DNA from: Geosiphon pyriformis uo1
Taxonomy: Eukaryota > Fungi > Glomeromycota
Reading direction: 5' to 3'
NCBI GenBank assembly: GCA_016748015.1
Contig: JAAOMT010000617.1
Location: forward strand, 442,635 to 506,634
DNA length: 64,000 nt
In this document: one piece after another, positions 1,259-57,001 of the stretch
How positions within the stretch are numbered: position 1 is the first letter of the stretch
How the letters are laid out: each line of letters opens with the position of its first letter
Program-made: the position numbers and the translations under genes
The notes under the pieces: generated by a model
The model's database searches: none
What the model was told of the DNA's origin: nothing
What the model saw: only the letters and a program-made list of their open reading frames with translations

Positions 1259-1894
1259 ATGGAAATACCAGAGCATATTTACACCATAGTTTAATAATTA
1301 TTCCAGGCCTTAAGTCAACAACCTTTAGACATGAAAATTATTATTAACAACCAAACAATTTGCTATCAAAACACCAAAAAAAAAACAAAGAATACACCAT
1401 ATCAGCAGTTACTAAAGAATGATAAAAACTGGTCAAACAACATAATAGAAAAAGTAAAAAACACTTTTGAGAAAATACTTATTATGGCACCAACAGAAAA
1501 ACTTACAAATGAGAATTGGAAGCAATAGACAGAACAACTTTTAATATCATACTGTTACTATCAGCTAGGTCGAAAGTTAAATATTCAGAAGTTGTATATT
1601 GACAAATCCAAGAGAATATTTAACCAAAACATAATACAGCAAATTGAAGAATTTATTGAGAAAAAAACAAACTTGACACTACATGTGAGAACAATTTATC
1701 AACTGCACAACATATTTCAGAACTATCCAGAAATACTGTTACAGTCTGACATGGAAACCATAACCATTAACTAATGGGGAAGAATGAACAATACACAAGT
1801 AGAAGATGTAAAGAACAGAGTCAAATAAACAATACTTGAAAAAAAAGTATTAGAGCTAATTCAGAATAAAGATTTTGATAGAGCTCAATATTAA
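1259..1894 (+). pseudogene. ORF3 of family B (211-aa unknown protein), premature stops
   Basis: 636 nt from ATG to TAA, same length as 6065-6700 and 15860-16495. ORF-track pieces 1331-1528 and 1592-1774 are in this frame. Confidence 0.85.
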
Positions 1895-1908: not shown

Positions 1909-2759
1909 TGTTACTCATAAAAAAAAAACAAATATAGGGAGAATAGTAGACCAATGAGTGAATAGTATGTAGCACGTGAACATATTGCTCAACAATATAG
2001 AGCAATGTCTAAAATCATGGCATATTGTTCAGCAATATGGAGCAATGTCAGAAAATTAGAGCACATCACTCAGCAATGTAAACATTGCTCAAGAAATCAT
2101 AACACATCACTTGGAAATGTAAGTGATCTCATAGAACATTAATTATGTATATATAGTGGTAGTATTAGAAGTAGAAAAAGCAGAATTCTTTAGTTAGAAA
2201 TCTTCTATCCACAAATATTAAATAAATAAATCATCTACTATCCAAATTCACTCTCCACTATCAACATAAAATGTTGATAGTAATTGATACTTAACTACAC
2301 TGGAACAATAGCTCTTAATCACGGCTATTGACAAGATACTAATTTGCACATTGCCTTGGCTTCTTTCTTTATTTTCTTTTATTTTTCTTTCATTTTTTGA
2401 TTTTTTTTGTTGAATACTAACTGATTAAGGATTAAAGTACTGAGTAATTAACGTCACAAATAGTCTGGTAAAAGACCCAGAAATAAGGGTAAAATTATAT
2501 ATATATTATCAGATAGCTTACCAGAAGGGCACAAATGCCAGAATAAATCCAGCCACTAAGCTGAAAAAAAAATTGGAAAAACAACTTAAGAATACAACCA
2601 CTATTAATCTTAAAAGATCTCTGTCTATTATACAAAAGACTCAACTCTAAAACCTTCAGATACAACTAACATACCAGTATTACCAGTATCATCAAGATAT
2701 TGAGCACCAAGTTATAGATTTGTTATTTAATTTGAGACCCCAAATAATCATCTGTAACA
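1909..2759 (+). repeat. Family B 3' LTR (851 bp)
   Basis: TGTTAC...GTAACA termini. Homologous to 6714-7605. Confidence 0.95.
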
Positions 2760-4598
2760 ATAGATAGAATAGATATACCAGTTAATATGGCAGAGAAAGA
2801 AATTGTTGACAAAGAAAAAATTATCTCAACCTATTAAACAATTTCCATTCCACCATATGACCAGTATATATTAGTCATAAAAAGGAAAGTAAGGGATCAA
2901 GCTCAATTGTTTGAAGCAGAAGCCACTATTTGTGAATCAGGCGAGATTGGACTCACCAATCTCTACATATCAGCCAAAAGCCCCAAAAACATCAAAATTC
3001 TCATTTATAATACAACTGGAAAAGTCATCAAAATACCAAAAGGAATTATCATTGAATATTTAACCACCAAAGTTGAGGATCAACCACCAAACCACATTCC
3101 AAATTTTCTACAGCTTTGCAGATATGTGGACATTACATCACAAATCATCTATAGAAGAAGTGAATATTATCTCCTCCAACCAGAACAATTGGAACAGATG
3201 AATATAGGAAATTTAGATCCACTTCAACAGATACAACTCAAGATATTACTCAACAATTTCAATAACATCTTTTCTAGTGAAAATGAATTTGGCCAAACCA
3301 ACATCATCCAGCATTAGATCAAGACTGAAAATGCAATGCCAATTAAACAAAGAGCATACAGAGTACCATCAGCTAGCCATGAGATTATTTGTCAAGAAAT
3401 TAACCAAATGCTTGACAATGGATTAATTCAGCCATCAATGAATCTATGGTCATCACCAGTGGTACTGGTCCATAAGAAAAATGTGAAAATCCGTTTTTGT
3501 ATAGACTACTAGAAACTGAATGGAGTAACAAAAGATGATAGCTATTTAACTCCAAAAATCCAAGAACTATTCGATGCTTTTGGAGGAAATAAATGGTTCT
3601 TAACACTAGATTTAAATAGTAGTTACTGACAAGTAGCCATGGATCCAGCCAACAAAGAAAAAACAGCATTCACCACAAAAGAAAGAAATTTTGAGTTTGA
3701 AGTTATGCCATTTGGCTTGATAAATGCTCCAGCAACATTCCAACAGCTTATGGAAATTGTCTATACTGAATTACTATGAAAATCAGTAGTCATATACTTA
3801 GATGACACCAATGTGTTCTTAAAAACATTTAATAATTATCTGCATTATCTCCAACAAGTGTTTGAAAGATTAAGAAGAACAGAATTAAAACTAAACGCAA
3901 CTAAATGTTTCTTTGGAAAAACTGAACTCAAGTTTTTGGGACATATAATGAGCAAAAATGAAATCAAAACAAATCCAGACAAAATTAAAGTAGTTAAGAA
4001 CTTTCCAGTACCAACTAACTTGACAAAACTAAGAGCATTTTTAGGTTTTGTAGGCTATTATTGCCATTTTATCAAAGACTTTTCAAAACTGGCTCAGTCT
4101 TTTCACTATCTACAGACCAAAAATGTGAAGTATAAATGGACCAAAGCTCAACAAGAAGCATTTGACACATTAAGAAAAAAGCTTATCTAAGCTCCAGTAT
4201 TAATATATCCAGATCACAGCAAACCATTCATAATCACCACCGATGCATCAGGTCAAGCATTGGAAACAGTACTATCACAGAAAAGATCAAATAGAAGAGA
4301 ACATCCAGTAGCTTACACCAGTAGAAACTTAAGTTCAGCTGAGAAAAACTATAGAACTCCAGCACTAGAACACTTAGCTATCTATTAGGCTGTTATTAAA
4401 TGGAAAGAATATTTGAGTCAAAAGTTTGAAGTGTATACTAATCACAAAAGATTGACTTCAATCCAGAAACAAGATTTTGCAAACAATTGCTATGCCAGAT
4501 GGAAAATAGAACTTTCACTATTTAATTATATAATACATTATAAAAAGGGAAAACACAATAGAAATGCTGATGGACTGTCATAAATGAAACAAATCTAA
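2760..4598 (+). pseudogene. pol: Decayed post-dUTPase region, reverse transcriptase and RNase H
   Basis: MPFGL.NAP, YLDD (~3795), FLGH, TDAS, VYTNHK motifs; ends MKQI-stop. Confidence 0.95.
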
Positions 4599-4627
4599 AA
4601 ACATTCCAACAAAAAATATAACAAAAA

Positions 4628-6004
4628 ATGAATATACAAAAATACCAACAACTTTAATATTATATAAATACCCAATTGTTCAAGAAGAAATTATCTCAAA
4701 AAAAACAAAGGAACATAAAACAACAATCAAAAAATTTTATCAACTATCAAAATATACTTTACTGGAAGAACAGAAGAAATTCAGATCAACCAACTAGAGT
4801 AATCACAGAACCAGAGAAAGAGACAATATTATTCAACATGCACTCAAACCCAACAGCAGGACATTTTTATAAAGAAACAACCATAGAAAGAATCAAAAAG
4901 AGATATTATTGGCCATTAATGTATCCAGACATTATTCAATATGTTCAGAATTGTGATGCTTGTCAGAAAAGAGGTGGAACAAGACCAAGTAAACCATTAA
5001 AACCAATCAAAGTAGAACAACCATTCGATCACATTGGAATTGACTTAGTCAGACCATTAACAATTACCAGCAGAGGCAACAGATATATTGCAGTAGCCAT
5101 GAATTATCTCACAAAATAGTCAGAAGCAAAAGCCATTCAAAGAGCAGATGCAGAATCTATTGCCAAATTTGTTCATCAAGATTTGATATGTCAACATGGA
5201 TATCCAAAAAAACTACTATCAGATCAAGAAACTCATTTTGTGAATAGAACATATACAGAATTAAGTCAAAGATTTGGGATAAAAAGACCATTATTATCAC
5301 CATATTATCCATAAACAAATGGACTAGTCGAAAAGTTTAACAGAACACTGTGTAAAGCAATCGCCAAAATCAGTTAAGAAAACCAAAATAAATGAGATTT
5401 GTTTATACTATCAGTATTATTTGCTTATTGGACAATGTGACAAGATACTACACAAGCAACACCATTTGAATTGGTATATGGTAGGACAGCAATATTACCA
5501 GTTAAGAGAAAGATCAGCACATATCTAACAAAACCAATAACAAAAGCTAATTTCCAAAAAACATTGTTAAAAAGAACATATGACCTAATGGAAACACTAA
5601 AAAACAGATGATGAAAAGCAGCTGATAACATCCAAAAGTCACATGAAAAACAAAAAAAAAGACATGATAATTAACTACCAAACAAACCAGTTAAATTCAA
5701 GATTGGAGACAAAATACTTTTATATCATACCAAAGCAAAAAAACAATAAAGTAAAAAATTTGATCTCAAATGGGATGAACCATTTCACATACAAAAAATT
5801 CTTTAAAATAAAGCTTATAAACTAAGATGGAACAACAAAATTTTAGCCAAAGCAGCACATGATGATTGACTGAAACCATATTACCAAATAGCATCATCAT
5901 CCACCAATAACATTCCACAATTAGGAGTACAATAAATACTGGTTTAATCAGATGAGATTCCATGAGATCTGGAACCAATCATAATCATTGAACCAAACAC
6001 ATAA
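4628..6004 (+). pseudogene. Decayed DDE integrase in its own ORF
   Basis: ATG at 4628. HHCC (H..PTAGH, CDAC), GIDL, SDQ.THF, NGLVE, GPY/F-like tail; 1377 nt. Confidence 0.92.
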
Positions 6005-6064
6005 AATCAAACAATAAAAGAGTATATAAAAACACAGTATACGCAATAAAGGCAACCAAGAAAA

Positions 6065-6700
6065 ATGGAAATACCAGAGCATATTCATGCCATAGTTCAA
6101 TAATTATTCCAGGCCTTAAATCAACAACCTTTAAACATGGAAATTATTGTTAACAACCAAACAATTTGCTATCGAAACACCAAAAGAAAGACAAAAAATA
6201 CACCATATTAGCGGTTACTAAAGAATAATAAAAACTGGTCAAACAATATAATAGAAAAAGTAAAAAACACTTTTGAAAAAATACCAATTATGGCACCAAC
6301 AAAAGAACTTACAAAAAAGAATTGGAAACAATGAACAAAACAACTTCCAATATTATACTGTTACTACTAGTTAGATTGAAAGTTAAATATTCAGGAGTTG
6401 TATATTGACAAATCTAAGAAAATATTCAACCAAGACATAATACAACAAATTGAAGAATTTATTGGAAAGAAAACAAATTCAACACTACATGTTAAAACAA
6501 TGTACTAACTACACAACATATTTTGGAACTACTCAGAAATACTGTTACACTCTGAAATAGAAACCATAACCATTAACCAATGGGGAAGAATGAACAATAC
6601 ACAAGTAAAAAACATAAAAAACAGAGTCGAACAAACAATACTTGAAAAAGAAGTATTAGAATTAATTCAAAACAAAGATTTTGACAGAGCTCAATATTAA
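6065..6700 (+). pseudogene. ORF3 of family B
   Basis: 636 nt, MEIPEHIH...DFDRAQY-stop; the stop abuts the PPT (6699-6710). Confidence 0.85.
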
Positions 6701-6713: not shown

Positions 6714-7605
6714 TGTTACTTATAAAAAAAAAGAAAAACAGATATAGAAAATAGTAGACCAATAAGAGAATAGTATTTAACATATGAGCACATTGCTCAG
6801 CAATGTGAAGCAATGTCAAAAATCATGGCACATTGCTCAACAATATGGAGCAATATCAGAAAGCATGGTATATTGCTCAGGAATATGGAGCGATGTTAGA
6901 AAATTAGGGCACATTATTCAGCAATATGAGCATTGCTCAAGAAATTATAGCACATTGCTCAAGAATATGAGTGATCTCGTAGAACATCAATTATGTATAT
7001 ATAGTGGTAGTGTTAGAAGTAGAAAGAGCAGAATCTCTAGTTAGAAAATCTTCCATCCACAAAAATATTAAATAAATAAATCATCTACTATCCAAATTCA
7101 CTCTTCACTATCAACATTTTATGTTGATAGTAATTGATACTTAACTATGTTGGAACAATAGCTCTTAATCATGGCTATTGATGAGATACTAACTTGCACA
7201 TTACCTTGGCTCATTTTTTTATTTTTTTTTATTTTTTTCTTTCTTTGATTTTTCTTGTTAAATACTAACTGATTAAGAATTAAAGTGCTGAGAAATTGAT
7301 GTCATGGATAGTCTGGTAAAAGATCCAGAAATAAGAGTAAAATTATATATATATTAATAGATAGCTTACCAGAAGGGCACAAATGCCAGAATAAATCCGG
7401 CCACTAAGCTGAAGACAAAAATTGAGAACACAACTCACCAACCAACTACATTGTCATTAAATTTCTGTCCATTATACAAAGAACTCCACTCTAAAAAACC
7501 TTTAGATACAACCAACATGCCAGTAATATCAGTATTGTCAAAATATTGAGCACCAAGTTACAGATTTGTTATTTGATTTGAAATCCCAAATAATCATCTG
7601 TAACA
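6714..7605 (+). repeat. Family B 3' LTR (892 bp)
   Basis: TGTTAC...GTAACA termini, preceded by the PPT. Confidence 0.95.
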
Positions 7606-7831: not shown

Positions 7832-9212
7832 TTAATTTGATGTATTTGAATCAATAATTATAATTGGTTTCAGATCTTGTGGAATCTCATTTGGTTGGAC
7901 TAGTATTTATTATACTTCTAGTTGTGAAATATTATTAATAGATAATAATGCTATATTGTAATATAGTTTTAGTCAATTTCTATGTACTGCTTTGATTATA
8001 ATTTTGTTGTTTCATCTTAATTTATAAGTTCTATTTTCTAGAATTTTTTCTATGTAAAATGAGCCATTCCATTTGGAGTCAAATTTTCCACTCCATTGTT
8101 TTTCTGCTTTGGTATAATATAAAAGTACTTTGTCTCCAATTCTAAATTCAACTGGTTTATCTGGTAATTGGTTATCATGTCATTTTTTTTGTTTTTTTTG
8201 TAATTTTTAAATGTTATTAGCTGCTTTTTGTCTTTTGTTTTTCAATGTTTCTATTAGTTTGTACATTTTTCTGAGCAATGTTTTTTGGAAGTTGGCTTCT
8301 GTTATTGGTTTAGTTGAATATGTATTGACTTTTATCTCAACTGGTAAAGTTACTGTTTTACCATAAACAAGTTCAAATGGTATTGCTTGTGTAGTATTTT
8401 GCTTTATTGTCTAATAAGCAAATAGTATTAATGATATAAACAAATTCTATTTGTCCTGGTTTTTTTGGCTGATTTTGGAAATTGTTTTACACAATGTTCT
8501 GTTAAACTTTTCCACTAAACTATTTGTTTATAAATGATATGATAATAATAATAGTCTTTTAATTCTAAATTTTTGGCTTAATTCTGCTAATGTTCTGTTT
8601 ACAAAGTGAGTTTCTTGATCTGATAGCAATATTTTTGAGCATCTGTGTTGACAAATCAAATCTTGGTAAACAAATTTGGCTATAGATTCTGCATCTGCTC
8701 TTTGAATTGCTTTTGCTTCTGGCCATTTTGTGAAATAATCTATGACTACTGCTATATAATAATTGTTTCTACTGGTTATTGTTAATGATTTGATTAAGTC
8801 AATTCCAATTCTATCAAATGGTTGTTCTACTTTAATTGGTCTTAGTGGTTTACTAAGTCTTGTTCCTTTTTTTTTGACAAGCATTACAATTTTGAACATA
8901 TTAAATGATGTCTGGATATATTGATGGCCAATAATATTTCTTTCTGGTTTTTTCTATAGTTGCTTCTTTATGAAAATATCCTGCTGTTGGATCTGAATAC
9001 ATGTTATATAGTATTGTTTCTTTTTCTGGTTTCATGATTACTCTAAGTAGTTAATCTGAATTCTTTTTGTTTTTTTAATATAGTATATTTTAGTGAATAA
9101 TAAAATATTTGGATTGTTGTTTAATATTGTTTTATTCCTCTCGAGATAATTTTTCTTGGAACTGTTGAGTATTAATATAATGTTGGAGTTATTGATATTT
9201 TTGTGTATTTAT
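7832..9212 (-). pseudogene. Decayed integrase ORF of B3
   Basis: ORF 8528-8899 has GIDL, TKWPEA, SDQETHF. Start codon decayed to ATA at 9212. Confidence 0.9.
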
Positions 9213-11074
9213 CTTTTGTTATATTTTTAGGTCAAAATATTCTTAAATTTGTTTTATTTGTAACAAACTGTCAGCATTTCCATTTTCTTTTTTCTTTTTA
9301 TAATATATGATATATTTGAATAATAAAAGTTTTATTTTCTATCTTGCATAACAATCATTTCCAAATTTTTGCTTTTGGATTAATGTCAATCCTTTGTGAT
9401 CAGTGTATATGTCAAATTTCTGACTTAAGTATTCTTTTTATTTTATTACTGCCCAATAGATAGCTAAGTGTTCTAGTGCTAGTGTTCTATAGTTTTTTTC
9501 AGCTGGATTTAAGCTGTGACTAGCATATGCTATTGGATGTTCTTTTCTATCTGGTTTTTTCTAAAATAATACTGCTTCTAATGCTTGATTTGATGCATTA
9601 ATGGTAATGATAAATGGCTTGCTGTAATCTGAATAGATTAATACTAATACTTGAATAAGTTTTTTTCTTAAAGTATCAAAAGCTTTTTGCTGTTTTTCAG
9701 TCTATTTATATTTTACATTCTTGGCTTGAAATTGGTGAAGTAGCTAAGCCAGTTTGAAGAAGTTCTGGATAAAGCAGTAGTAATATCCAGCGAATTTCAA
9801 GAATACTTATAGTTCTGTCAAATTTGTTGGTACCAGAAAGTTTTTGACAGTCTTAATTTTGTCTGGATCTGTTTTGATATTGTCTTTACTTATTACATAT
9901 TTTAAAAATTTCAATTTCATTTTGCTAAAAAAGCACTTAGTTGCATTTTATTTTAATTCTACTCTTTTCAACCTCTTGAACACTTGCTGAATGCAAATAA
10001 TCATCAAATATTTTTAAGAACATATTGGTGTTATTTAAATATATAACTACTGATTTCCATAACAGTCTGGTATAAACAATTTTCATAAGCCATTGAAATA
10101 TGACTGGAGTATTGGTTAAGCCAAATAGCATGACTTCAAATTCGAAATTTCTTTCTTTAGTAGTGAATGTAGTTTTTTTTTATTAGCTGAATTTATGGCT
10201 ACTTGCCAGTAAACATTATCCAAGTTTAATATGGAGAACCATTTTTTTCCTCCAAATGTATTGAATAATTTTTGAATTCATAAAATAGAGTAGCTGTCTC
10301 TACAAGTTACACTATTGAGTTTTCTATAATCTACACAAAAACAGATTTTTCTATTCTTCTTATGAACTAGTACCATTGATGATGACCATGAACTTATTAA
10401 TAATTAAATTAACCCATTGTTTAACATTTGGTTGATCTTCTGTTAAATGATTTCATGGCTTGCTGGTGGTACTCTGTATGTTTTTTGTTTAATTGGCATT
10501 GCATCTTTAGTCTTGATCTGATGCTGGATGATATCAGTTCTACCAAATTTGTTTTTACTTGTAAAGATATTAGTAAAATTGTTGAATAACATTTTGAGTT
10601 GCATTTATTGAAATGGGTTTAGATTTCCCAAGTTTATTTGTTCTAATTGTTCTGATTGGAGCAAATAACATTCTTTTTATTCATATATTGTTTGTGATAT
10701 AATATCCACATATCTACACAATTGTGGAAAATCTGGAATAGTGTTTGGTAGTTGGTCTTCAATTTTAGTGCTTAAGTATCCAATAGTGATTCTTTTTGGT
10801 ATTTTGATGGGATCTTCAGTTGTATTGTAGATGGAAATTTTAATGTGATTATTGTTTTTGGCTAGTATATACAAATTGGTAAGTCCAATCTTTTTTGATT
10901 CACAAATTGTAGTTTCTATTTCAAAAATTTGAGTCTGATCTCTTACTTTCCTTTCAATAGTTAACATGTACTAGTCATATAATAGAATAGAAATTGGTTA
11001 ACAGATGGAGATAACTTCTCTCTTGTCAACCATCTCTTTTTCTGCCATATTAATTAGTACATTTATTCTACTTG

Positions 11075-11500: not shown

Positions 11501-13586
11501 GCTCCTTGAAAAGATCAGGAAGTGCAATATATTGTTTTGGGTTTGAATCTGAGTACAAATCATTGTTATTAGTGTTGTCATTTTGGACTGAGCTGGAACC
11601 ATTGTTTTTGTTATTGTCATCAGAGTTTGAATTGGAATTGGATTTCAATTCTGATTCCGATTTATAGTTGTTGATTGGTTCTTCTTCTTCTAAGATTGTG
11701 TAGATTATATGTAATAATAAATTGTAAATAAGATCACATTTATCACAATATTGGAAGTTACATAGAATTAAACAGTATTAACAAAGTTGAACATTTAACT
11801 GTTTTAACTGCTGTTCTTATTTTGTTTTGATTAGTGCTAAATTCTAGTAGTGCTCATAAAATTTTTCTGGGCTAGCTTTAATATTAAGAAATGCATCTGA
11901 ATTGGGAATAAGAATAATGTTAACTTGTTTTAATGGGTTGTTCTTTATTTCTAAAATCTCACTGAATGAAGTGCCTTTGACTTTGGTTTTTGCCATTTTT
12001 TAAATCTTATTTTCATTATGTGGGTAACCATTTAAGCATGACAAAGCTTGGTTTCATGTAGTATTGAAAGGTGTTTCACAACTTATCTAGTTGTTTATAA
12101 GAATTGTGTATTGGCATAATGTATTACACATTCCTCCTCATCCAGGAATGTCATTCCACATTTCTTTGTTAAGTAACTGTTCTTCACAAGTGAGACATAG
12201 TTTGTTGTTCCACTTGTCTTATTGTTTTGGATAGTTATAACATTTTTTATGACACAGCTTACAGTAATAATGGGTTTTAGTCCAATAATCTTTGTCAGAT
12301 GCAACTCAAGCTTTCATAGAGAATAGTTTTTTTTTGCAGTTTTTGCACTTAAATAGAATATATAATGGCTTTGGTCTGGTGTCAATCAAATAGGATTTTT
12401 CCCAATCACTGGTGGTTTCACTGGTAATAATATTTTTTTGTGGCTCATCTTCTTTTTTCTCTTTTTCCTTATTGTTTCAAGAGAGGATTAATGGTAATTC
12501 ATTGTGGTTGGTGTCAGTCCATAAGACTTAATAGGCTTCTCAAGTAGGTTTTTTTTCTTTTTTTTCAAATTCTATAAGTAGTTGTGTGACAGTTGGTTTG
12601 AAGTGACAGATAGCTGGTATTTGGGTGTGTTGATCATTTTGGCTGAGTTGCAATTCTTGGGTGGTCTAGTCAAGTATGACATTGGTCTTAAACAGCTAGT
12701 CATTATCAACTAGAGCTTGGTATTAGGTGGCTTCCATGATGAGGACTTTTATAAACATAATAATGCCATTAACTTCAAATGGAAAGCCATCAATCTCACC
12801 AATGAGCATTTTTGTTGCTCTATTAGTGGTGATAATTTTAGTGCTAGCAGCATGATCAATTCAGTAACCTAATTGGTTCATGAGTTGTTGTGTGATTATG
12901 CTGCTGGCTAATCTACTGTTCAGGATTAGTTTGATAAACTGACTATTAACCTTGACATCTGTATACATTGCAATAATTGGTTTGGCATTAAAAGTGGCTT
13001 CACTAAATAGAGGTGTTGTTGCTGGTTTTTTGAGTTCAAAAAAAAAATAGTGGCCAATAATTTTTTGTTGGTGAGTGATTTTTTGTTGGTTTCCAAGTTA
13101 TTGAGTGAAATGTCTACTGGGATAACTAGAAGACTTAAATAGTTCTGGGAATTCAGGTTTTGAACATACCCAGTTTTCAAACTTCAATGGTGAGATCCTG
13201 ATAATTGACTTGAGAAACTGAAAATCAATTGATGTATTATCATTGCCAATTTCCAGTTTTGTTAAGTGTGTATGATTCTTAGCCTTTGATTTCTGGATGA
13301 TATTTGAGCTGAGTTTGGTGGCAGTATTTAAATTAATTGTGGTTGATAGATTATTTGTGACTGCAGCTAATATATTATAAATGCTAAAGTTTGATATATT
13401 GGAAGTGAGTATATTGGTTGCTGTATCATTTGTGAGTAATAAGATTGATATTGATCTTAATTTGGAGAATAGGTTAAAGTTTGAAACTGGCAATTGGGGT
13501 TTCAATATTAATTTTCTGATCATAAGTTACCATTATAACAGCAGTCAATTCTGATGTAATCTTATTTACTACAATTGTGGCAGATA

Positions 13587-13606: not shown

Positions 13607-14323
13607 GGTGAGATCCTGATAATTGACTTGAGAAACTGAAAATCAATTGATGTATTATCATTGCCAATTTCCAGTTTTGTTAAGTGTGTATGATTCTTAG
13701 CCTTTGATTTCTGGATGATATTTGAGCTGAGTTTGGTGGCAGTATTTAAATTAATTGTGGTTGATAGATTATTTGTGACTGCAGCTAATATATTATAAAT
13801 GCTAAAGTTTGATATATTGGAAGTGAGTATATTGGTTGCTGTATCATTTGTGAGTAATAAGATTGATATTGATCTTAATTTGGAGAATAGGTTAAAGTTT
13901 GAAACTGGCAATTGGGGTTTCAATATTAATTTTCTGATCATAAGTTACCATTATAACAGCAGTCAATTCTGATGTAATCTTATTTACTACAATTGTGGCA
14001 GATACATGTTTCTGGCTGCCACAATTGATTGGTTGACAATAAAAGACATGACTGATTTTGGAAATAATTTGAGTTTTCTTGATTATTTTATTGTTGTAGA
14101 GGTTAATAAATGGCTTAATTGTTAACTAAGTATCCTTCCAATTTCTGGTTGATTGAATCACTGAATTGTTTCAATTTGGAATCCAATTTAGATAATTTAT
14201 TCATTACTAGATTTATAGCTTGGACATAGTTGGCTTTAAGTTCAGCTGATTCAAAGTCTTTGGTGTATGTAATGGCAGTTTGAAGATTGTCTGAATGTAA
14301 TAGACATATGTATTGTTGAATGC

Positions 14324-15859: not shown

Positions 15860-16495
15860 TTAATATTGAGCTCTGTCAAAATCTTCATTTTGAATTAATT
15901 CTAATACTTCTTTTTTAAGTATTGTTTGTTTGACTCTGTTTTTCATGTTTTCTACTTGTGTATTGTTTATTCTTCTTCATTGGTTAATGGTTATGGTTTT
16001 CATGTCAGAGTGTAATAGTATATTTGGATAGTTTTGAAATATGTTGTGTAGTTGGTACATTGTTTTAACATGTAGTGTTGAATTAGTTTTCTTTCTGATA
16101 AATTTTTCAATTTGTTGTATTATGTTTTGGTTAAATATTCTCTTGGATTTGTCAATATACAACTTCTAAATATTCAACTTTCGACCTAACTGATAGTAGC
16201 AATATGATATTGGAAGTCGTTCTGTCTATTGCTTTCAATTTTCTTTTGTAAGCTCTTCTGTTGGTGCCATAATAAGTATTTTCCCAAAAGTGTTTTTTAC
16301 TTTTTCTATTAAGTTATCTGTCCAGTTTTTATTATTTTTTGGTGGCTGCTGATATGGTGTATTCTTTGTCTTTTTTTTTGTGTTTTGATAGCAAATTATT
16401 TGGTTGTTAATAACAATTTCCATGTTTAACTGTTGTTGACTTAGTGCTTGTGACAGTTGTTAAACTATGGTGTAAATGTGATCTGGTATTTCCAT
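15860..16495 (-). pseudogene. ORF3 of family B
   Basis: 636 nt; contains ORF-track 15977-16162 and 16235-16423 in one frame. Confidence 0.85.
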
Positions 16496-16550: not shown

Positions 16551-17934
16551 TCAATTTGATGTGTTTGGTTCAATAACTATGATTGGTTCCAGATCTTGTG
16601 GAATCTTATCTGGTTGAACTATTATCTTTTATACTCTCAACTGTGGAATGGTATTGGTAGATGATGATGCTATTTGGTAATATGGTTTTAGTCAATTATT
16701 ATGTGCTGCTTTGGCTAAAATTTTGTTGTCTCATCTTAATTTATAAGCTGTATTTCCTAGAATTTTTTCTATGTGAAATGGTCCATCCCATTTGGGGTCA
16801 AATTTTCCATTCTATTGTTTTTCCGCTTTGGTATAATGTAAAAGTACTTTGTCTCCAATCTTGAATTTAACTGGTTTGTCTGGTAGTTGATTATCATGTC
16901 TTTTTTTTTGTTTTTCTTGTAACTTTTGGATGTTATCAGCTGCTTTCTGTCATCTGTTTTCTAGTGTTTCCATTAAGTCATATATTTTTTTCAACAATGT
17001 TTCTTGGAAATTATCTTCTGTTATTGGTTCAGCTAGATATGTATTAATCTCTATCTCAACTAGTAATGTTGCTGTTCTACTATATACCAATTCAAATGGT
17101 GTTGTTTGTGTGGTATCTTGCTTCATTGTCCGATAAGCAAATAATACTGATGGTATAAACAAATCCTATTTGTCCTGATTTTCTTGGCTGATTTTGGCAA
17201 TTGCTTCACATAGTGTTCTATTAAATCTTTTAACTAAGCCATTCATTTGTGGATGGTATGGTAATAATAATGGTCTTTTTTATTTCAAATCTCTGGCTTA
17301 ATTCTGCTAATGTTCTGTTTACAAAGTGAGTTTTCTGATCTAATAATAGTTCTTTTGGACATTTATATTGACAAATCAAATCTTAATGAATGAATTCAGC
17401 AATGGATTCTGCATCTGCTCTTTGAATGACTTTTGCTTCTGGCCATTTTGTGAGATAGTCCATGACTACTACAATATATCTGTTGCCTTTGCTGGTGATT
17501 GTTAATGGTCCAACTAAGTCAATTCTGATATAGTTGAATGGTTGTCCCACTTTGATTGGTCTTAATGGTTCACTGGGTTTTGTTCCACCTTTTCTCTGAC
17601 AAGCATTACAATTCTGAACATATTGAATAATATTCGGATATATTAATGACCAATAGTATCTTTTTCTGGTTCTTTCCATGGTTGCTTTTTTATGAAAATA
17701 TCCTGCTGTTAGATCTGAATGCATATTGAATAATATTGTCTCTTTCTCTGGTTTTGTGACAACTCTTATTGATTGATCTGGATTTTTTCTGTTTTTCTGG
17801 TAAAGTATATTTTTATAATTGATAAAATGTTTTAATTGTTATTTGATATTATTTCACTCATTTTGAGATAATTTCTCCTTGAACTGTTGAGTATTTATAT
17901 AATATTGTAATTGTTGATATTTTTGTATGTTCAT
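16551..17934 (-). pseudogene. Decayed integrase ORF of B4
   Basis: ATG at 17934 (MNIQKYQQLQ); CNAC, IDLVGP, TKWPEA motifs. Confidence 0.92.
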
Positions 17935-17995: not shown

Positions 17996-19128
17996 TTAGA
18001 TTTGTCTTATTTACAACAAACTATCGACATTTCTGTTGTCTTTTCTCTTTTTATAATGTATAGTGTAAGTATATGATAATAGTGCCATTTTTCATCTTGA
18101 TTGTCTTCCATCTCCAAATTCTTGTTTATAAAGTGCTGTTAATCCTTTGTGGTTTGTGTATACATCAAACTTCTGGCTCAAGTATTTATTCCATTTTATG
18201 ACTGCCCAATAAATTGCCAAATGTTCTAATTCTGGTGTTTCATAATTTCTTTTAACTGGAGTTAAACCTTGGCTGGCATATGTAATTGGATGTTCTTTTC
18301 CATCCAGTCCTCTCTGTGATAGTACTGCTCCTAATGCTTGGCCTGATGCATCAGTGATAATGATAAATAGTTTATTGTAATCTGAATAGATTAGTACTGG
18401 AGCTTGTATAAGCTTTCTTCTTAAAATATCAAAAGCTTTTTGTTGTGTTTCTGTCCATTTATATTTCACATTTTTGGTTTGGAGATGATTGAAAGATTGG
18501 GCTATCTTGAAAAAGTTTTTGATAAAGTGTCAATAATAGTCTGTGAATCTCAAAAATGATTTTAACTCCATCATATTGGTTAGTACTGGAAAGTTCTTAA
18601 CTATCTTTATCTTTTCTGGATTTGTTTTGATGTTGTCTTTGCTTACTATGTGCTCTAAAAAATTTAATTCTGTCTTGCCAAAGAAGCACTTATTGGCATT
18701 TAACTTTAGTCCTGCTTGTTATAGCTTTTTGAACACTTGTTGTAGATAATGCAAATGATCATCAAATGTTTTGGAGAACATATTAGTGTTATCTAAATAA
18801 ACAACTACTGATTTCTACAACAAGCTGGTATATACTATTTCCATTAGCCGTTGGAATATGGCTGGCACATTTGTTAAGCTGAATAACATCACTTTAAATT
18901 CAAAATTTCCCTTCCGTGTTGTAAATGCAGTCTTTTTTTTGTCCACTAGATCTATGGCTACTTGCCAATAACCACTATCTAAATCCAATGTTGAGAACTA
19001 TTTGTTTCCCCCAAAAGCATCGAATAATTCCTAAATCCATGAAGTTGGATAGCTGTTTCTATGTGTGACTCCATTAAGCTTCCTGTAGTTCACGCAAAAG
19101 TGGATTTTCCTATTCTTTTTCTGGATGA
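17996..19128 (-). pseudogene. pol: RT and RNase H of B4 (RT N-terminal part continues at 26705-26885 and from 27732)
   Basis: ORF 18092-18469 has TDASGQALGAVL and VYTNHK; ends IRQI-stop. Confidence 0.93.
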
Positions 19129-20087: not shown

Positions 20088-20293
20088 TAACTTCTTCCTC
20101 AAGACTGAGCTCTGTCGAAGTCCAAGTATTGTCTGTAATTTCCAGATAGTAATTCAAAATTATTGAAGAAATTTGGTCTGAAAATTGTTGAAATTTCAGT
20201 TTTGTGAGCTTTCCAATGTATTGAATCTTTAAAGGCTGAAAAATTGGGTTTTGTAGAACGTTTTCACAGGTGTGGAATAGGTCATAAAGTTTA
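20056..20293 (-). pseudogene. C-terminal part of family A ORF3, fused in frame to truncated RNase H
   Basis: KLYDLFHTCENVL...IGKL aligns without gaps to B ORF3 QLHNIFQNYPEIL...WGRM. Confidence 0.7.
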
Positions 20294-25700: not shown

Positions 25701-25745
25701 TTTAAAGTTGTTTTTGCTGTGTTGTTTCTATGGGAGAGCACCAAA

Positions 25746-36189: not shown

Positions 36190-36199
36190 AATAATTTAG

Positions 36200-48920: not shown

Positions 48921-50306
48921 TTAAGTGTTCAAGTTGTGAGGCTGTTCAATGACAATTATTGGTTCTAAATTTTGGGGAATGTCTTCAGGATTGATTAAAG
49001 GAGAATGTGTACCAATTTGTGGAATTAATGATTCAGGATTGTTTCTAGAATTATAGTGTTTCAAACAATCTCCATGTGCAACTTTTGCTAGAATTTTGTC
49101 ATCAAGTCTTAGCTTGTATGATCTGTTGCCTAAAACTTCATGGATAAAAAATGGTCCATCCCATTTATTTTCAAATTTTCCATTCCATTGTTTTTTAGCT
49201 TTAGTTCTGTATAAGAGAACTTTGTTTCCAATTTTAAATTCATTGGTGACTGGAGGCAATTTGTTATCATGCCATTCTTTTTGTTGAGCTTGAGAGTGTT
49301 TAATATGGGTGGCTGCTATTTGTCATTTTTCTTCCAATGTGCTAAGCAAAGTGTAGGCTCTTCGTTAAAGTGTTTCTTGGAAATTGTTTTCATTGATTGG
49401 TTGTATTGGGTATGTTTTCACTGTGAAACTAATTGGTAACATTGCCGTCCTTCTGTAAGTTAAATCAAATGGTATGTGTTTTGTGATATCTTGTTTTAGT
49501 GTCCTATATGCTAGTAACACTGATGGAATAAAGAGATCCCATTCTTGCTCAAAATCGGTTGAAACTTTGGCTAATGATTCACACAATGTTCTGTTGAACC
49601 GTTCTATCAGTCCATTTGTTTGTGGATGGTAGGGTGAAGATAATGGTCTCTTGACATTAAATTGTCCACAAATTTCCTGGATTAAATTGTTCACGAAATG
49701 TGTTCCTTGATCAGATAAAAGTTCTATTGGGCATCTATATCTACAAATAATGTCTTTGTAGATGAAGTTTGCTACTGATTTTGCATCTGCTCATTGAATG
49801 GCTCTGGCTTCAGGCTATTTGGTGAGATAGTCTACGGCTACTGCAATGTAGTGGTTTCCTTGGTTTGTGATAGGTAGTGGTCCGACTAAATCGATACCAA
49901 CTTTATCAAAAGGCTGTCCAACTTTAATTGAGTTTAAAAGTTCTATAGAGCAAGTTCCTTTTCTTCTTTGACAACTATCACAAGATTTAACATATTCGTG
50001 AATGTCTTTTCTCATTTGAGGCCAAAAGTAGTATTCTAGTGTTCTTTGGGTGATGCTGTCTTTTCCAAAGTGGGCTGATGAAGGATCTGAGTGCATATTG
50101 TATAATATAGTCTCTTTTTCCTGTTCTTGTATTAATCTGAGTGGTTTGTCTGGGTTTTTCAAATTTTGGTAATAAATAATGTTGTTGTGTAGAAAATATT
50201 GTTTGGCTTGTTGTTGTAGTTGATGTTTTTCATCTGGAGACCAATCTGTTGAGATTGTTAATGTTTCCAAATATTGTTTGAGATCATTGTAGTTTTCCAA
50301 ATTCAT
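48921..50306 (-). pseudogene. Integrase ORF of A3 (461 aa, single frame, premature stops)
   Basis: ATG 50306; HHCC, GIDLVGP, NGLIERFN, KWDGPF. ORFs 49815-50306, 49365-49694 and 48921-49259 share one frame. Confidence 0.94.
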
Positions 50307-50358
50307 TGTTTATTGGTTCTTTTGGTTGGTTAAGTTGAGTGTTGGTTTTTGTGTTTTT

Positions 50359-53300
50359 CTAATCTTGTCTTATTCTGGAGAGACAGTCAACATTGGTGTG
50401 GAGTTTTCCTGGTTTGTAATGTACTATGTATTGATAGTTTGCTAGAAATTCTGTCCATCGGGTTTGTTTTGCATTCAGCTAAGTATTTTTGTTCTGAAGC
50501 CATTTGAGTCCAATATTATCAGTGATAATATCGAATTCTTTAGGCCTAAGATAAAGGTTGAAGTGGTGTAGGGCCCAAATTACGGCTGCTGTTTCTAGTT
50601 TTGTAACAGGGTAGTTTTTCTCAGCTGGTTTTAATGTTCTGCTAGCATAAGCAATTATTCGCTCATTTCCATTGTCATCTAGTTGTAATAAGATAGCACC
50701 AAAGGCAGTATATGAAGCATCTGTAGCTAGTTGAAATTGGTTGCTGAAATCTGGATAGGCAAGAATTGGAGCTGTTGTCAGTTTTTCTTTGAGAATTTCA
50801 AAAGCTTTTTGGTGTTCGGTAGTTCATTTGTATTCAACATTTTTGGTGGTGAGCTGGTTGAGGGGTTTTGCAATTTCCGAAAATCCTTTGATAAACTTCT
50901 GATAGTAGGATGCTAATCCTATGAATCCTCTTAGTTCTGTAGTGTTTTGAGGAGTTTTGAAGTTTTTGACAATGCTGATTTTTCCAGGATCTGGTTTAAT
51001 TCCATTTTTACTAACAATATGATCAAGGAAGGCCAGGCTTGTTTTTCCAAAGTAGCATTTTTCAATATTGAGTTTTAGTTCTGTTTTTTGTAATTGTTGA
51101 AAAACTTCTTACAGGTGTTTTAAGTGTAATTCGAACAATGGAGAATAAACATCAGTATTGTCAAGATAAATGACTACTGATTTCCAAAGAAGTCCTTGGT
51201 ACACAACATCCATTAATCTCTGAAACATTGCTAGTGCATTGCATAATCTGAAAGGCATTACATTGAACTCGTAATTTTCACTTTGGGTGGTGAATGCTGT
51301 TTTGGGGCAATCTTTGGGATCCATAGCAACTTGCCAGTAACCATTTTCTAAATTTAGTGTTGAAAAGTATTTGGATTTTCCAAGGGCATCTAACATGTCA
51401 TCAATCTGGGGAAGAGGGTAGACGTCTTCAATTGTAACACTGTTGAGTTGTCGATAGTCAACACAAAATCAGATCTTTCCAATTTTCTTTTTAACTAACA
51501 CTACAAATGAAGCCCAAGGACTCATGGAGGGTTGAATAAGCCCATTGTTAAGCATTCATTGTACTTCTTTTCAGATGAATTGGTGGCTTTTTGGAACAAC
51601 TCGATATGCTTGTTGTCTTCTTGGTTTGGCATTTCCTGTATAAATTTGGTGTTGGACCAAATTGGTTCTTCCTAAGTCATTGTTGTTTTCAGTGAAAATA
51701 TTGACAAATTCTGCAATTAGCTCTTTGAGCTGGGTCTGTTGTTGTGGTTCAAGTTGTCTCATGTTGATTTGAGATAGTTTTTCCATGACAACATGGTAGT
51801 TTTCAGAGCTGGGGTTTGGGTTGATTTTTGGTAGTGAATGTCCAATAATTTCAGGGAAATTGGGAACTGTTTGGGGTAATTCTTGTTGAAATATATTACT
51901 GTGAATAACTCCAATTTCTAAATTATTTAATAAAATTATGGGGTAATTATTAGGGTTGTAAAAAGTAACTCAGACTTTCTTTGTTCCTTCTGGAATATAA
52001 ATGTTTGGGATCAAAATATTATGTTTCAAGCAGACTTGTTTATTGGACTCAAAAATTTGTTGTGTGGTTGTTGGTTTTGGGCAGGTGTAGATTTCTGGAT
52101 GTTCTCCAAAGGGTGAGATGGTAATCGGTTGTGGAAGTCTAAGAATCTGGTGGAATTCGTTCCATGTATTAAGAGCTATGTTAACTGGAACTGTGAATCG
52201 TTCAGTTGAACCAAAACTTTGGGTTCCTCTATTGCTTTTTCCTAATTGTTCTCTTTGATTGACTAGTTGCAAACCCAAAATGTTGATTAAGGGTAGGTAA
52301 ATAGCTTGGACAATTTTTTCAGCATGTTCGATCTTGAATGGTTTGTCAGTTTCATTTTGAAGCATCACTGTAATGTCTCCAGTATATCTAGCATTGATTA
52401 TTCCTCCTCTGACATTGATTTCTTTGCTTGCCAGAGAGAACTGGGAGGTAATTTGAACCATTGCTCCTGGCGGGATTTCGAGTGCAATTTTGAGGTTGAT
52501 TTTTGTGAGAGATTTGGGTTTGAGAACAAGAGTATCCTTGTCTGGATATCTTAGGTCATATCCAACATCAATTTTGTGTGCTTTTTTGGGTTTTATTCCT
52601 TGTCCGTTGTTGTTGAAGTATTTAAGTTGTAAGGCAGGCTGATTTTCGATAAGGTAGATAGGTGTTGTTTCAATTTTTTCCGTTGCTTCAAGTTCTCCAA
52701 ATTCAATTTCGTTCTCATCATTTTCGCTGGACAAGGGGATACTAAGAGCATAGCATTCTGGACACCACTGTTTATTACAAGGCATAATGCATTCTTCACA
52801 TAGCCTAATGTTCATTTGCTCTAATCATTGAATTTGAGCTTCTTGAGTTGGGTAAGTGTAACTTGCAATTTGGTGGTAGACTTCTACTTTGTCTTCATAA
52901 TTGAATCCAGCTAATTCCATGGTGTATTCAATGTATTCTGCTTCCTTCATTTGGCGAACATCTTCTTTGGTAGCTCCATTAATTAATGCCATTGCTAGGT
53001 CAAAAATCATCTCAGCATCATGAGGGTAGTGATAAAGTTTGTTGAGAGCACTGTTGTATGCCACATTAAAGGGTGTTCCTCTTTTTACTTTTTCTGAAAT
53101 TGATAAAGCATATTGGCAGGTCTGATCGCAGACTCCTCCTCTCATGGCTACATCAATCCAATTGCATTCTTCCGGTAGCATATCTCCACAAGTCAAACAA
53201 GGGATGTTGTCTCATTTTCTGCTCCTTTTTATTAGATGGCTCTATCATTCTCTGTGGCAAGCCTTGCAGTAATAACAAGTATGATTTTCATATTCTTCTT

Positions 53301-56190
53301 TAGATGAAATGCAGGCTCCCATTGATGATAGTTTCTTGTGGCAGTCCTTACATTTAAGGGGAATATAGGGGCGTTGTTTTCTTGGTTCAGGTTTTGAGTA
53401 AGGGATATTTCATCCAGAGGTTTCGGGTTCAGAGTGTGGGGTAAAATGTTCTTGTTTTGTTTTATCAGCCCAGTTGGACGTTGATCCAAGAGCCATGAAT
53501 GTTTCAATAAGAGGTTTTTCCTCTTCCAGTTTGAATTCAAAAGCTGGGGCTTTTTCAGAGCGTTTGTTGAATGTACCACAAATGGCAGGTACCTGGGCGT
53601 GTTGTCCTTGATAGGAAATTGTTAACTTTTGTGTTTCCCAATTCAGATTAGCATTGGCTTTTTGAAGCCAATCATTTCTGATGAGAGCTTAGTACTGAGA
53701 TGTATCTATTACAAAAACTTTGACTGAAATGGTAATTCCATTAAGAGTAAATGAAAAATTGTCAATTTCTCCTACTGGGGTCTTTTTCATGCCATTGGCA
53801 GTAATGATTACTGTTTGAGCTGGTCAGTCGACATTTCTCTTCAACTGTTGCATTAACTGGTAGGTGATAATGCTTCTGGCAGATCCACTGTCTAGGATCA
53901 AGTGAATTGTCTTTTCTTCGACTTCTGCTTCAGTGTACATGGCCATGATTGCTTTTTGTTCATTGGTGGCTGCATTGCTAAGCAGAAATGGTGACTCATT
54001 TGCTTCAAACTCAAAAGGGAATATATCGGAAAGGTTAGCGTTTTCAGCAATTTTGGCTGGTGGGATTGTGGTGGGAGTATAAAAAAGGTTTTGTTGTTGT
54101 TGTGCTGCAGCTCTACCTTCCGAGAGTGCAGTATGGTGAAAATCCTGTTCTTCCGGCATTGTTAAATAACTGGATTGAGTGTGGTAGTGGTTGGGTCTTG
54201 GTTGAGTGGTATTTTGGGAAACCAATTGGTTGTTCGAACTGATTCTATTGTTGTTTACTTGGTATCAGTTTGGTGGTGTGAATTGATTTTGTGTAATCAG
54301 TCTTCGAGCAGGTACTTGATAATGTTGTGTAGGTGGTTGTTGATATTGTTGTTGGATTGGCTGTGGGGCTGGCTGATAATAGTTATTTTGGTATTGGGGT
54401 CTTGGTGGATAGTAAGCTGGTAGTGGTAGTTGATAATAAAATTGCTGTGGTGGAGGGTAACGTTGATTACTCCTATTTTGTTGGTCTCGTTGCAGCTTTC
54501 TGCAATCTCTTTTCCAGTGACCAGAGATTCCACAGTAATGGCAATTCTGAGGCTGGTTATTGGAAAGTGGTGCAAAGTTATTTTGATTTCGTCTTTGGGA
54601 TGGTTAATATCTTTGGGGTTGCTGTTGTTGTTAATTGGTGAAATAGTTTTTAACCTTCTTTGTGAGTTGGTCAATTTTTTTCTCAGCTGCTGAGCTGGTT
54701 TCTCCAATTGCCAAATTTACAAGTTTTGTGCAATTGGCCTCTTCCATGGCCATTTTATATCTTTTCGCATGCTGTATGGCAGAGTTTAAATCTTCTGGCA
54801 CATGTGGGCGAACCTTTTTAATTAGTTTATCTTTTAGACCAGCAATAAATTGATCCAAAATTTGAGCATCAGAATAATAATCGTTTGTTTTGAGTTGGCG
54901 AATTTGTCTAAGAAGTTTGTTGAATTTCCCAATATAAGTCATAACAGATTTGGAGGGTTCTTGTTTGATATTTCGAAAACAATTACAAAGGGTAATAGAG
55001 GTATTATTGTTGGTGAACTGTTCAAGGAAGGCTGCTTTGAAAGCGTTCCAATCATTGAATGGGGCAGCCAAGTTTTCAAACCATTCTCCTGCTGTTCCTT
55101 TGAGAAAGTAGAGAATTGTTCTTAACATTCTGGCAGCATTCCATCCATTTGCATCTCCAGCTTTAGTAACTTGGTCGAGCCATTCTTGGGGACTGGTCTC
55201 AATATCTTCTCCATTGAATTCAGGGATTTTTGCAATGTATGTTGTCATTTCGTTTTCTTCATTTTCACTGTCTATTGATTCTTCTTCAGTTATTTCAGAG
55301 TTGTTTTTTTTGTTTGCTGCTGTCTCAGAGTGTTCACTTTGATTTTCAGCTAGAAAATCAAGGAGATTGGAACTAGTTTGAAGGGGTTCTTGTTGTCTGG
55401 TGGGACTTCTGAGTGATGTAAAATCTTCTGGTCTTGCAAATCGATTCAAGGGTGAATTAGGTGTTTGTGCTTGTGCAAGTAAAGCTGGAAAAGGTGTGAT
55501 AGTAAGTGGAAGTTTTGAACTGGTTCTTTGTTCAGGTGTTTGTAAATGTTTGGCAGTTGTTTTCGGTAGTGTTGGAGTATTTGGGATGGTTCTTGAATAT
55601 TGCTTTAATTTGTTTTTGTCTTTGTTGCTTGTTTCTGTTTTCGATTCAAAATCAATAGTATATTGAGACTGCACTGGATATGTTTCTTCACAGTATTTGA
55701 TAATGTTAAAATTAAGTTCATGAAAGTAAGTGGCAAGTGTTTCACTGTTAAGGTCTTTAGTTTCCAACTGTGAATAGTGTGCTAAATTATTGTAAAGATT
55801 GCTTCTAACTTCTGAGATATTGTAATTTCCAAAAAGATAATTGTTGATGCGGTTTTCAATGTATTAGTATACTGATTTCTTGACAACTTCAATTCCATCT
55901 GGAATGTTAAATCTTTGCTTGCAGTGGGTGTAAATTAATTGGTAATACTCTAGAGTTGTTGCGTCTGGTGTGGTCACCACTTTGAAGTTGTTTTTGCTGT
56001 GTTGTTTCCATGAGAGAGCACCAAATATTACTGGAGGTTTTTTGGTCTCTTTTCTTAAATGTTGTCAATGCTTGTTTGCTGTGAATTCACGTTTTCTGGA
56101 TGTGGTTGAATCTCCAATAACTGAATTTATCTTCAAATTATCTTCTATAATTTGAACTGTTGGGCTTATAAGTGGAATGACCAATTCCAT
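50359..56190 (-). pseudogene. pol: Gag-PR-Cys-rich-dUTPase-RT-RNaseH polyprotein of A3 (start uncertain)
   Basis: ORF-track pieces starting at 55767, 54225, 53196, 52815, 51786 and 51396 are all in one frame; ends SRIRQD-stop. Confidence 0.92.
52200..52640 (-). pseudogene. dut: dUTPase domain of A3
   Basis: VGYDL, GGIINARYTG, KIVQ, RGTQSFGST motifs. Confidence 0.93.
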
Positions 56191-57001
56191 GCCAGTTACT
56201 TTATGTAGTTACATTGTAGTAAATGTCAACTCTTTCCCAGGAATTGCTTATCTGGAAGCTCACTAAAATGTATAGTTACTTTGCTGTGAAAGTCAACTCT
56301 TCTACAAAAATCTTGTCTGTAGGCTACCCTAATGATTGTAAAAAAAAAAAAGGAAAATAAAAGAAATGTAAAAGAAATAAAATTCTGTCAAGGAAAACGT
56401 TTTCTATCCAGGCCTGAAGTCACTAACAGTTTACTGAAATTGGTAGCTAATCAATTTCAAACTGTTTAGTAGGAATTAGTTAATTTCAAAAGTGAAATAA
56501 TTCAGGATTTGATTTTTCGAATTATTTGATATTTATTTCGTTTTTGTGTGTAAAGGATGATTCTAATTGTTAAATCTAAAGTAAGATACATTTTCTCGAA
56601 GAGAGAAGCTCTTCTTTTATACGACTTGTTGTAACACTATTCTATGAACTTGAACTTTGTTATTTTCTACAATTTTGCTGAACTAAAGATACATTTTGGC
56701 GAACTACAAGTTATTTCTGCGAACTATTAGATATTTTAGTGAACTATCAATTATTTCAGTGAATTTCTATAAATTTCGGCAAACTTTTGAATGTTACATA
56801 GTTTGGGGTATTGCATGATTGATCATCACAATTAGGTTACATTTGTGTTGTGTACAATTTGGGTTATTAATTAAATGATAATTTTGGACATTTTTGCTAA
56901 TGTAATAAGTGATAATTTGAAACGATAATATATGCTAATTAATGATAAGAATTATAAGATAATTTTATGCTAAATAATATCTCTAATTTCATCTGGTAAC
57001 A
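56026..57001 (-). repeat. A3 5' LTR (976 bp)
   Basis: Adjacent PBS; ends CTGGTAACA. Confidence 0.95.

Follow-up and report, generated by a model that had tools for sequence, protein, structure and literature searches.

The window analysed here is a 64,000-nucleotide (nt) stretch of the genome of Geosiphon pyriformis (contig JAAOMT010000617.1, positions 442,635 to 506,634), and it is a stack of nested, CpG-decayed long terminal repeat (LTR) retrotransposons (CpG observed/expected 0.23). Copies B2, B3 and B4 belong to family B, and copy A3 represents family A; both the reverse transcriptase (RT) and the integrase (IN) of the two families are 51-53% identical. In these elements the frame encoding RT and RNase H ends in a stop codon, and integrase begins downstream at its own methionine in a distinct open reading frame (ORF). 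LTRs of the TG...CA type, a primer site, a polypurine tract and a short target duplication are present (A2, A3, B1, B2 and B4). The 4-bp duplications ATGA/ATGA (57002-57005 / 47425-47428, A3) and TCGT/TCAT (26705-26708 / 19125-19128) both look fitting for CpG-centred sites. The coordinates of the features are collected in Table 1.

An earlier note on this DNA had proposed that the RT-RNase H frame stops at the same place in every copy retaining the junction. The frame indeed ended at a homologous codon in 4/4 copies, and every position reported there was found again. The codon distance from the RNase H end motif (N.D.LSR) to the stop, which lies a few codons past this motif, is identical in families A and B. 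No internal decay stop common to all four copies was found within 150 codons on either side of the junction. The same note had read A3 as a single frame from gag through RT, and this frame was recovered as Gag-protease (PR)-dUTPase-RT-RNase H (RH), 1943 codons with 19 internal stops. Pfam matches to Gag, protease, dUTPase, RT and RNase H all fall within this first frame, whereas those to H2C2, rve and the SH3-like end lie in the frame that follows. In family A, the ATG with which ORF1 begins is located within the 5' LTR (56190-56026, minus strand), ~300 codons ahead of the capsid domain. The spacers between the two frames are A/C-rich, as had been described (63-90% A+C across the four copies; 29, 30, 61 and 52 nt in B2, B3, B4 and A3), and those of B2 and A3 were unstructured on folding. 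An extra ATG was present inside the spacer of one copy, B4. The B2 spacer contains an IN-frame TAA at 4619-4621, for which no variant was listed. The tricistronic layout was borne out for family B and 8 related loci but not for A3, and some relatives have at least four ORFs. Within the window, ORF3 occurs in family B only (B1, B2 and B4 whole with stops, B3 cut); in A3 its place is largely an N gap.

Table 1. Features of the window and of related metagenome loci (locus names beginning with L; positions within the locus).
Feature	Position	Strand	Details	Evidence
B1 ORF3 copy	1259..1894	+		
B1 3' LTR	1909-2759	+		
B2 RT-RNase H frame, end of ORF1	3213..4595	+	decayed	HMM match, translation
B2 ORF1 stop	4596..4598	+	TAA, conserved	sequence and DNA-run contigs
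B2 spacer	4599..4627	+	29 nt, A/C-rich, AUG-free, unstructured	
B2 stand-alone integrase ORF	4628..6004	+	ATG 4628, decayed	HMM match, translation
B2 IN-ORF3 spacer	6005..6064	+	60 nt, AUG-free, TATA-like motif	
B2 ORF3	6065..6700	+	211 codons, no Pfam match, ends at polypurine tract	
B2 3' LTR	6714..7605	+	TG...CA, polypurine tract upstream	
B3 integrase ORF	7832..9212	-	start decayed to ATA (9212), frameshifted	HMM match
B3 spacer	9242-9213	-	30 nt	
B3 ORF1 stop	9243..9245	-	TAA	
B4 ORF3 copy	15860..16495	-		
B4 integrase ORF	16551..17934	-	ATG 17934, decayed, frameshifted	HMM match
B4 spacer	17995-17935	-	61 nt	
B4 ORF1 stop	17996..17998	-	TAA	
A3 stand-alone integrase ORF	48921..50306	-	461 codons, H2C2 + DDE core + GPF/SH3 end, 4 internal stops	
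A3 spacer	50307..50358	-	52 nt, A/C-rich, AUG-free; 51 nt in 44% of contig depth	
A3 ORF1 stop	50359..50361	-	TAG, conserved	
A3 ORF1, Gag-protease-dUTPase-RT-RNase H	50362..56190	-	single frame, decayed	Pfam
A3 5' LTR	56026..57001	-	then primer-binding-site-like sequence; element extends to 47429	
Hairpin before IN start, metagenome loci	L006:585-623, L011:4463-4501		also in L005, L007, L013, L019, L027, L032 and L037	

The separation of integrase was also seen in relatives. A search with the A3 integrase returned 1068 proteins of 253-807 residues (E<=1e-30). The best 120 of these 1068 were taken and 119 were aligned (359-453 residues), one mixed gene model being excluded. A methionine stood in the column of the A3 start in 101/119 homologs, 95 of which begin there, and residue 2 was D, E or N in all 101 homologs with that methionine; Met1 was likewise invariant in a 56-row IN alignment. 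Most homologs were metagenome proteins, one bearing a bacterial bin name. The named ones came from Rhizophagus irregularis, R. clarus, Cetraspora pellucida and Entrophospora sp., and the best named homolog was a Geosiphon pyriformis protein with 81% identity over one third of the query. Among 120 longer proteins listed separately, five reached at least 39% identity, P0128 (discussed with the trees below) being one. Three others, the named fungal gene models P0123, P0124 and P0126, were rejected as RT-IN fusions, as they contain neither the RNase H end nor the IN start and are likely joined by false introns, the positions of which differ. Three longer members of one IN cluster were also rejected, their extensions being only spacer-like, non-RNase H sequence.

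At the DNA level, 80 metagenome loci were obtained from a scan of 6/64 parts. The survey of relatives suggested in the earlier note bore out the split: all 12 close loci in which the end of RNase H and the start of IN are present were split (9 intact, 3 decayed). Among distant loci (<=37% identity), 23 were fused. Outside this count stood L048, L058 and L062 (broken at the junction), L068 and L073 (IN upstream of RT), and the remaining loci, which do not contain one of the two genes. L068 and L073 are distant loci, and their gene order is Gmr1-like. In the viral contigs searched, only distant integrases were found.

The statement that frame is not conserved across the junction held for 16 junctions, where the gap ranged from -8 to 727 nt and was a multiple of three in 2/16. 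Both of these gaps contain an in-frame stop. An IN-frame stop lies within the gap in 15/16 junctions, and the remaining one is an overlap, out of frame. The gap was at most 110 nt in 12/16 junctions and AUG-free in 12/16; the ORF1 stop was TAG in 6/16. Start/stop overlaps were observed in L023 (-8) and L014 (-4), with an overlap in 1/16 ORF1-IN gaps. In L014, it is the stop of a Mrr-like restriction-endonuclease ORF (509-1234; PF13156, E 5.5e-9) that overlaps the IN start. In several relatives, RNase H and IN are separated by 300-600 unrelated residues or by entire ORFs; L011 and L017 have 314 and 586 extra residues after RNase H. In the subclade with the hairpin described below, a Cys/His-rich block with no Pfam match forms the ORF1 C-terminus after RNase H (L011:3497-4438, L006:2-541, L013:1-345 and L032). 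The protease/RT junction varies within the split clade: three split elements have an in-frame stop there (L017:3358-3360, L003:870-872 and L023:1585-1587), and A3 and L011 have one frame.

These relatives bear directly on whether the ORF1 stops are merely sense codons lost by convergent C>T/G>A decay, an explanation favored by the strong CpG depletion of the window. A sense codon at the stop was looked for in contigs of one DNA run placed on the A3 and B2 junctions; two other runs of the same sample yielded none, and the placed contigs are biased towards the reference copy. At the A3 stop and ATG, no alternative letter reached 5% in 1094 contigs, among the table rows listed. At the family-B stop and ATG, none reached 4% in 1072 contigs on B2, and the same was true of the in-frame TAA at 4619. 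Non-CpG decay stops reverted in the same data: position 50481 of family A was CAG in 85% of the depth, and position 4655 of family B was CAA in 67%. On A3, 21 contigs retained the stop with a different spacer immediately after it. Two observations from these contigs weigh against a genuine split. The CpG-derived, decayed T at 4581 was equally invariant (no C at 4% or more), so invariance alone is no proof in this genome. In family A, the TAA directly preceding the ATG has arisen by decay (CAA in 98%), and for 44% of the depth the spacer measures 51 nt; this CAA together with the 51-nt spacer could form an in-frame, stop-free path. The question is settled by the intact relatives, not by contig invariance alone: intact, stop-free relatives carry the same split, and they already refute decay as its origin. 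In addition, there are >1,000 near-length homolog clusters, and the best 120 are all without RT. Decay of a sense codon can thus be practically dismissed, and the split layout is, with hardly any doubt, real, conserved and inherited.

The RT and IN trees gave the same pairs. Both were unrooted and built without Ginger1 and without a Copia, BEL or retroviral outgroup. In the IN-only tree, the split elements lie on one side of a branch with a Shimodaira-Hasegawa-like approximate likelihood ratio (SH-aLRT) support of 81, within a group containing plant Athila/Tat-like proteins (99). In the RT+IN tree, support was 96/94 for 15 split rows (13 observed at the DNA level and 2 from gene models) versus 19 of 59 fused rows. 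One protein, P0128, speaks against a clean division: it is a true RT-IN fusion, without the IN N-terminal helix, and the RT-only tree puts it among the split elements. The RT data did not reject a single split clade (approximately unbiased test, p-AU 0.56). Judged by these trees, the split elements are one clade. Because they are nested among fused Gypsy-type Pols, the split would go back to a single event in a fused ancestor, an ordinary Pol having come apart where RT and IN are cleaved from each other. The lineage is likely one of mycorrhizal fungi, given named members in several Glomeromycota genera. The position of the new start was examined in a predicted model of the L001 integrase (predicted local distance difference test, pLDDT, 90), whose alignment with foamy-virus IN starts with residue 2 on residue 8 of the latter (Z 29.6, rmsd 2.9, 361 residues). 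In the model, the IN methionine sits where processed integrase begins.

For the synthesis of this integrase, the earlier note had named either reinitiation or a spliced/subgenomic RNA. Reinitiation fits better, and the AAG before the ATG on which the splicing option leaned is not general, so splicing ranks lower. A purine occupied position -3 at 19/22 IN starts compared with 290/549 internal ATGs (p 0.001), and the 60 nt upstream of IN starts held 9 ATGs compared with 20.5 in shuffles (p 0.0015). This Kozak context and AUG-poor leader suggest that ribosomes arrive by scanning. The IN-ORF3 gap ranged from -4 to 129 nt and was AUG-free in 9/9 loci. A TATA box was not enriched at -150..-20 of IN (1/18; shuffles 2.6). 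No common splice acceptor AG before IN and no common branch point/acceptor spacing were found, and in B2 and L025 the 60 nt leading up to the IN ATG lack AG altogether. On the scanning signs, the short AUG-free gaps and the missing TATA box and common acceptor, we put reinitiation on the full-length genomic RNA first, with a probability of about 0.5. Ribosomes would complete ORF1, move by scanning through the brief AUG-free spacer and resume at the IN AUG. Inefficient restart would yield less IN than Gag-Pol, and IN made in cis would, by analogy with foamy-virus Pol, enter the particle bound to its own RNA.

Several points weigh against reinitiation. Eukaryotic restart after a long ORF is rare without a helper signal or protein. 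UGGGA is the core of the calicivirus termination upstream ribosome-binding site (TURBS), and it was not conserved: a TGGGA/GGGA match lay in the last 120 nt of ORF1 at only 2/13 junctions. The gap of L017 is 727 nt with 12 ATGs, and that of L003 is 365 nt with 7 ATGs and a 71-codon ORF. A simple restart from the ORF1 stop cannot serve L017 or L003, and the AUG-free bases kept before their IN (110 and 82, respectively) are just as compatible with a separate RNA or with internal entry. In one subclade, moreover, scanning would be hindered by a hairpin located 2-14 nt upstream of the AUG. The passage of PMC3759858 on the cauliflower mosaic virus (CaMV) transactivator TAV concerns a helper for restart. 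According to the section of PMC5035957 on packaging, foamy virus packages the Pol precursor efficiently and mature IN not.

This hairpin is 39 nt long and lies before the IN AUG in nine loci. It consists of a 4-bp base stem, an 11-nt purine-rich bulge, a 6-bp stem, a bulged A, a further 2 bp and a loop of 3 nt. In the alignment, 94% of cells were paired and 8/12 pairs changed on both sides. This pairing was reached in 0/500 shuffles, and slid controls gave 21-48%; the structure was read from the same sequences that were tested, and the shuffles do not control for relatedness. A covariance model found the hairpin once per locus, only before the IN AUG, in 9/39 loci, all of them training copies. 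The hairpin was not found in the window, and there was no match to it in viral contigs and no Rfam match in the 16 loci scanned. It would be a candidate binding or control site of its subclade. The hairpin holds GTGAY, has YAG seven bases on in 8/9 loci and starts with GT in 8/9, and on these letters a reading as a 34-nt intron is possible. A second common motif, GACCTGCGTAAGGA, lies shortly before the IN AUG in L017:7390-7432 and L079:45-78.

If integrase is instead translated from its own subgenomic RNA, arising at an internal promoter or through a splice from the 5' leader in the manner of foamy-virus Pol, the AUG-free stretch kept before IN even in the long gaps of L017 and L003 finds an explanation. 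Foamy viruses provide a precedent in the relevant part of PMC5035957. AAG immediately in front of the ATG in 65% of the family-B depth, the branch point/acceptor-like GTGAY and YAG of the hairpin in 8/9 loci and a TATA-like run ~225 nt before IN in L017 all point the same way. However, the absence of an AG upstream of the ATG in B2 and L025, the lack of a common branch point/acceptor spacing and the missing TATA enrichment do not accord with it, and short gaps and overlaps would be unnecessary. We consider this route unlikely, although a serious contender. The covarying bulged hairpin of the nine loci, for which RNAalifold returned the same fold, and its confinement to a single site before the IN AUG in the 39 loci searched raise the idea that structured RNA recruits ribosomes internally, or gates translation via a bound protein (the ORF3 product, Gag or IN). 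The window families would then use an unstructured A-rich leader instead. This is rather improbable: the hairpin is lacking in the window and in 30/39 loci searched, the covariance model recovered only its 9 training copies, single-sequence folding z-scores were modest (-0.2 to -1.8), and no Rfam match was obtained.

Stop readthrough or frameshifting, by which an RT-IN fusion would be restored and packaging would be ordinary, appears very improbable. The 51-nt spacer of family A, combined with CAA for TAA before the ATG, could give it an in-frame path, and the TAG stops of the six junctions are compatible with it. However, the two gaps that are multiples of three both contain an in-frame stop, an IN-frame stop is present at 15/16 junctions, and the in-frame TAA at 4619 of family B has no listed variant. 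The intervening sequence of several relatives, made up of unrelated residues or entire ORFs, also speaks against readthrough, which moreover leaves the Kozak context and the invariant methionine unexplained.

Downstream of IN, an ORF3 of 140-180 residues was present in 10 related loci. Its family comprises 448 clusters at 50% identity, and its predicted model is confident and all-helical (pLDDT 95). Searches with this clade ORF3 gave no match in Pfam and, with Foldseek, none in PDB or BFVD. Fold leads were set aside as leads only (best VIA, Z 5.1; atlas closterovirus coat 0.94 and RegA 0.92, with low shared features). The 211-codon ORF3 of the window occupies the same place and gave no HMM match to the clade family (hhalign E 0.17). 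TATAWAW preceded ORF3 in 6/9 loci and in 0/300 shuffles, a post hoc count in which the motif overlaps the IN stop codon in 2 and coding sequence in 1; this is a hint that ORF3 may have its own internal promoter. The ORF3 product is likely an accessory protein. A fourth ORF follows ORF3 in L001:3157-3780 and L011:6801-7436; the two are weakly alike (E 0.001) and without Pfam match.

Other parts of the window were also inspected. Copy A2 (19129-26704, minus strand), inserted in the RT of B4, is internally deleted, its RT being cut near 20290 and followed by the polypurine tract and 3' LTR. Another retroelement, likely a long interspersed nuclear element (LINE), occurs twice in inverted orientation (41375-45477 and 59878-64000; 72%); it has RVT_1 and an RNase H of cellular type. 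An identical 398-bp duplicate (13189-13586 / 13607-14004) flanks a 20-N gap and is likely an assembly artefact. Two very AT-rich segments (34000-38000 and 46000-47400; 12-23% GC) are ~70% alike.

LTR retroelements package IN as part of Pol, and a large, old clade that has abandoned this must translate and load IN otherwise. The split clade is a natural test of IN packaging in cis through RNA and, within a fungus, a candidate for reinitiation following a very long ORF. It also brings a new structured RNA and a likely accessory protein whose fold matches none known. The split explains mis-annotation, with RT and IN linked through false introns by gene callers or IN labelled a host gene, in genomes that have LTR elements as a main component. 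The clade is, further, a possible intermediate in the debated relationship of Gypsy integrases to Ginger1 transposases. More speculatively, and we would not expect all of it to hold, the whole Glomeromycota retrotransposon clade might be a polycistronic, pararetrovirus-like unit. Its IN would have been freed from Pol once and be translated and loaded via the hairpin RNA element (absent from Rfam), with ORF3 as a trans-acting factor licensing restart or carrying IN into the particle. The free IN cistron would be a ready source of Ginger1-like DNA transposons.

Among known systems, Caulimoviridae (CaMV TAV) and calicivirus reinitiation share closely spaced or overlapping ORFs with the elements described here, in the former on one reverse-transcribed RNA. 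Caulimoviridae Pol ends at RNase H, and to our knowledge caulimoviruses are without integrase. A TAV-like fold was not found for ORF3. In contrast to calicivirus TURBS, the split junctions have no conserved UGGGA, and an overlap occurs at a single ORF1-IN gap.

Foamy viruses (Spumaretrovirinae) resemble the split elements in expressing an enzyme gene apart from Gag and, according to the part of PMC5035957 on this point, in RNA-dependent packaging. Their IN has the same four-domain fold and start as the predicted model. In foamy viruses, however, the whole Pol is separated by splicing and IN is still cut from it, whereas in the split clade RT remains joined to Gag (A3, L011) and IN alone has become free. 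Ginger1 transposases, as outlined in passages of PMC2836005 and PMC6839031, are free Gypsy-like integrases of ~400 residues with YPYY, H2C2, DDE and GPY/F and with 4-bp CG-centred duplications. They share with the window elements the free-standing integrase and duplications of this kind (TCGT/TCAT, ATGA/ATGA). The window elements differ in having LTRs, Gag and RT, with no terminal inverted repeats at the ends examined and no OTU/Ulp1 tail. In an N-terminal extension before H2C2 of the split integrases, Y6, L13, P19, F38, L45 and Y46 are conserved, at the same place as the YPYY part of Ginger1, a comparison made without Ginger1 sequences, none of which turned up in the searches.

The closest correspondence is with Ty3/Gypsy (Metaviridae), Ty3 Gag-Pol being the best solved relative (E 2.6e-51). 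Both have TG...CA LTRs, a polypurine tract, a primer site, a 4-bp duplication and the order Gag-PR-(dUT)-RT-RH-IN, together with a Ty3-type capsid/Gag, RVT_1, RT_RNaseH and the IN fold. The nearest groups are YPYY-bearing and Athila/Tat-related, in line with the grouping of IN with plant Athila/Tat-like proteins (99). The dUTPase-bearing PosPlaTy3-5 and Tmt1 are among the closest known elements; the description of PosPlaTy3-5 in PMC2864245 likewise places dUTPase between PR and RT. In the sections of the fungal surveys dealing with it (PMC3248453, PMC2864245), pol is one polyprotein of PR, RT, RH and IN. The window elements differ in that IN lies outside the polyprotein and one or more extra ORFs follow it, and in this they depart from the usual state of the group, in which IN is translated within Pol. 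The literature searched gave no description of a Ty3/Gypsy clade whose IN has an ORF to itself, supplements, Repbase/GyDB records and subscription journals lying outside this search. The excerpts of two papers on transposons of mycorrhizal fungi (PMC11952901, bioRxiv 2021.03.30.436303) are silent on layout, and the 'separate ORF' of the corresponding passages in PMC13468544, PMC5911963, PMC2582038 and PMC4427930 refers to gag/pol, an extra RNase H or LINEs, not IN. By their sequence features, the elements belong to Ty3/Gypsy, as an apparently undescribed layout with a separate integrase gene.

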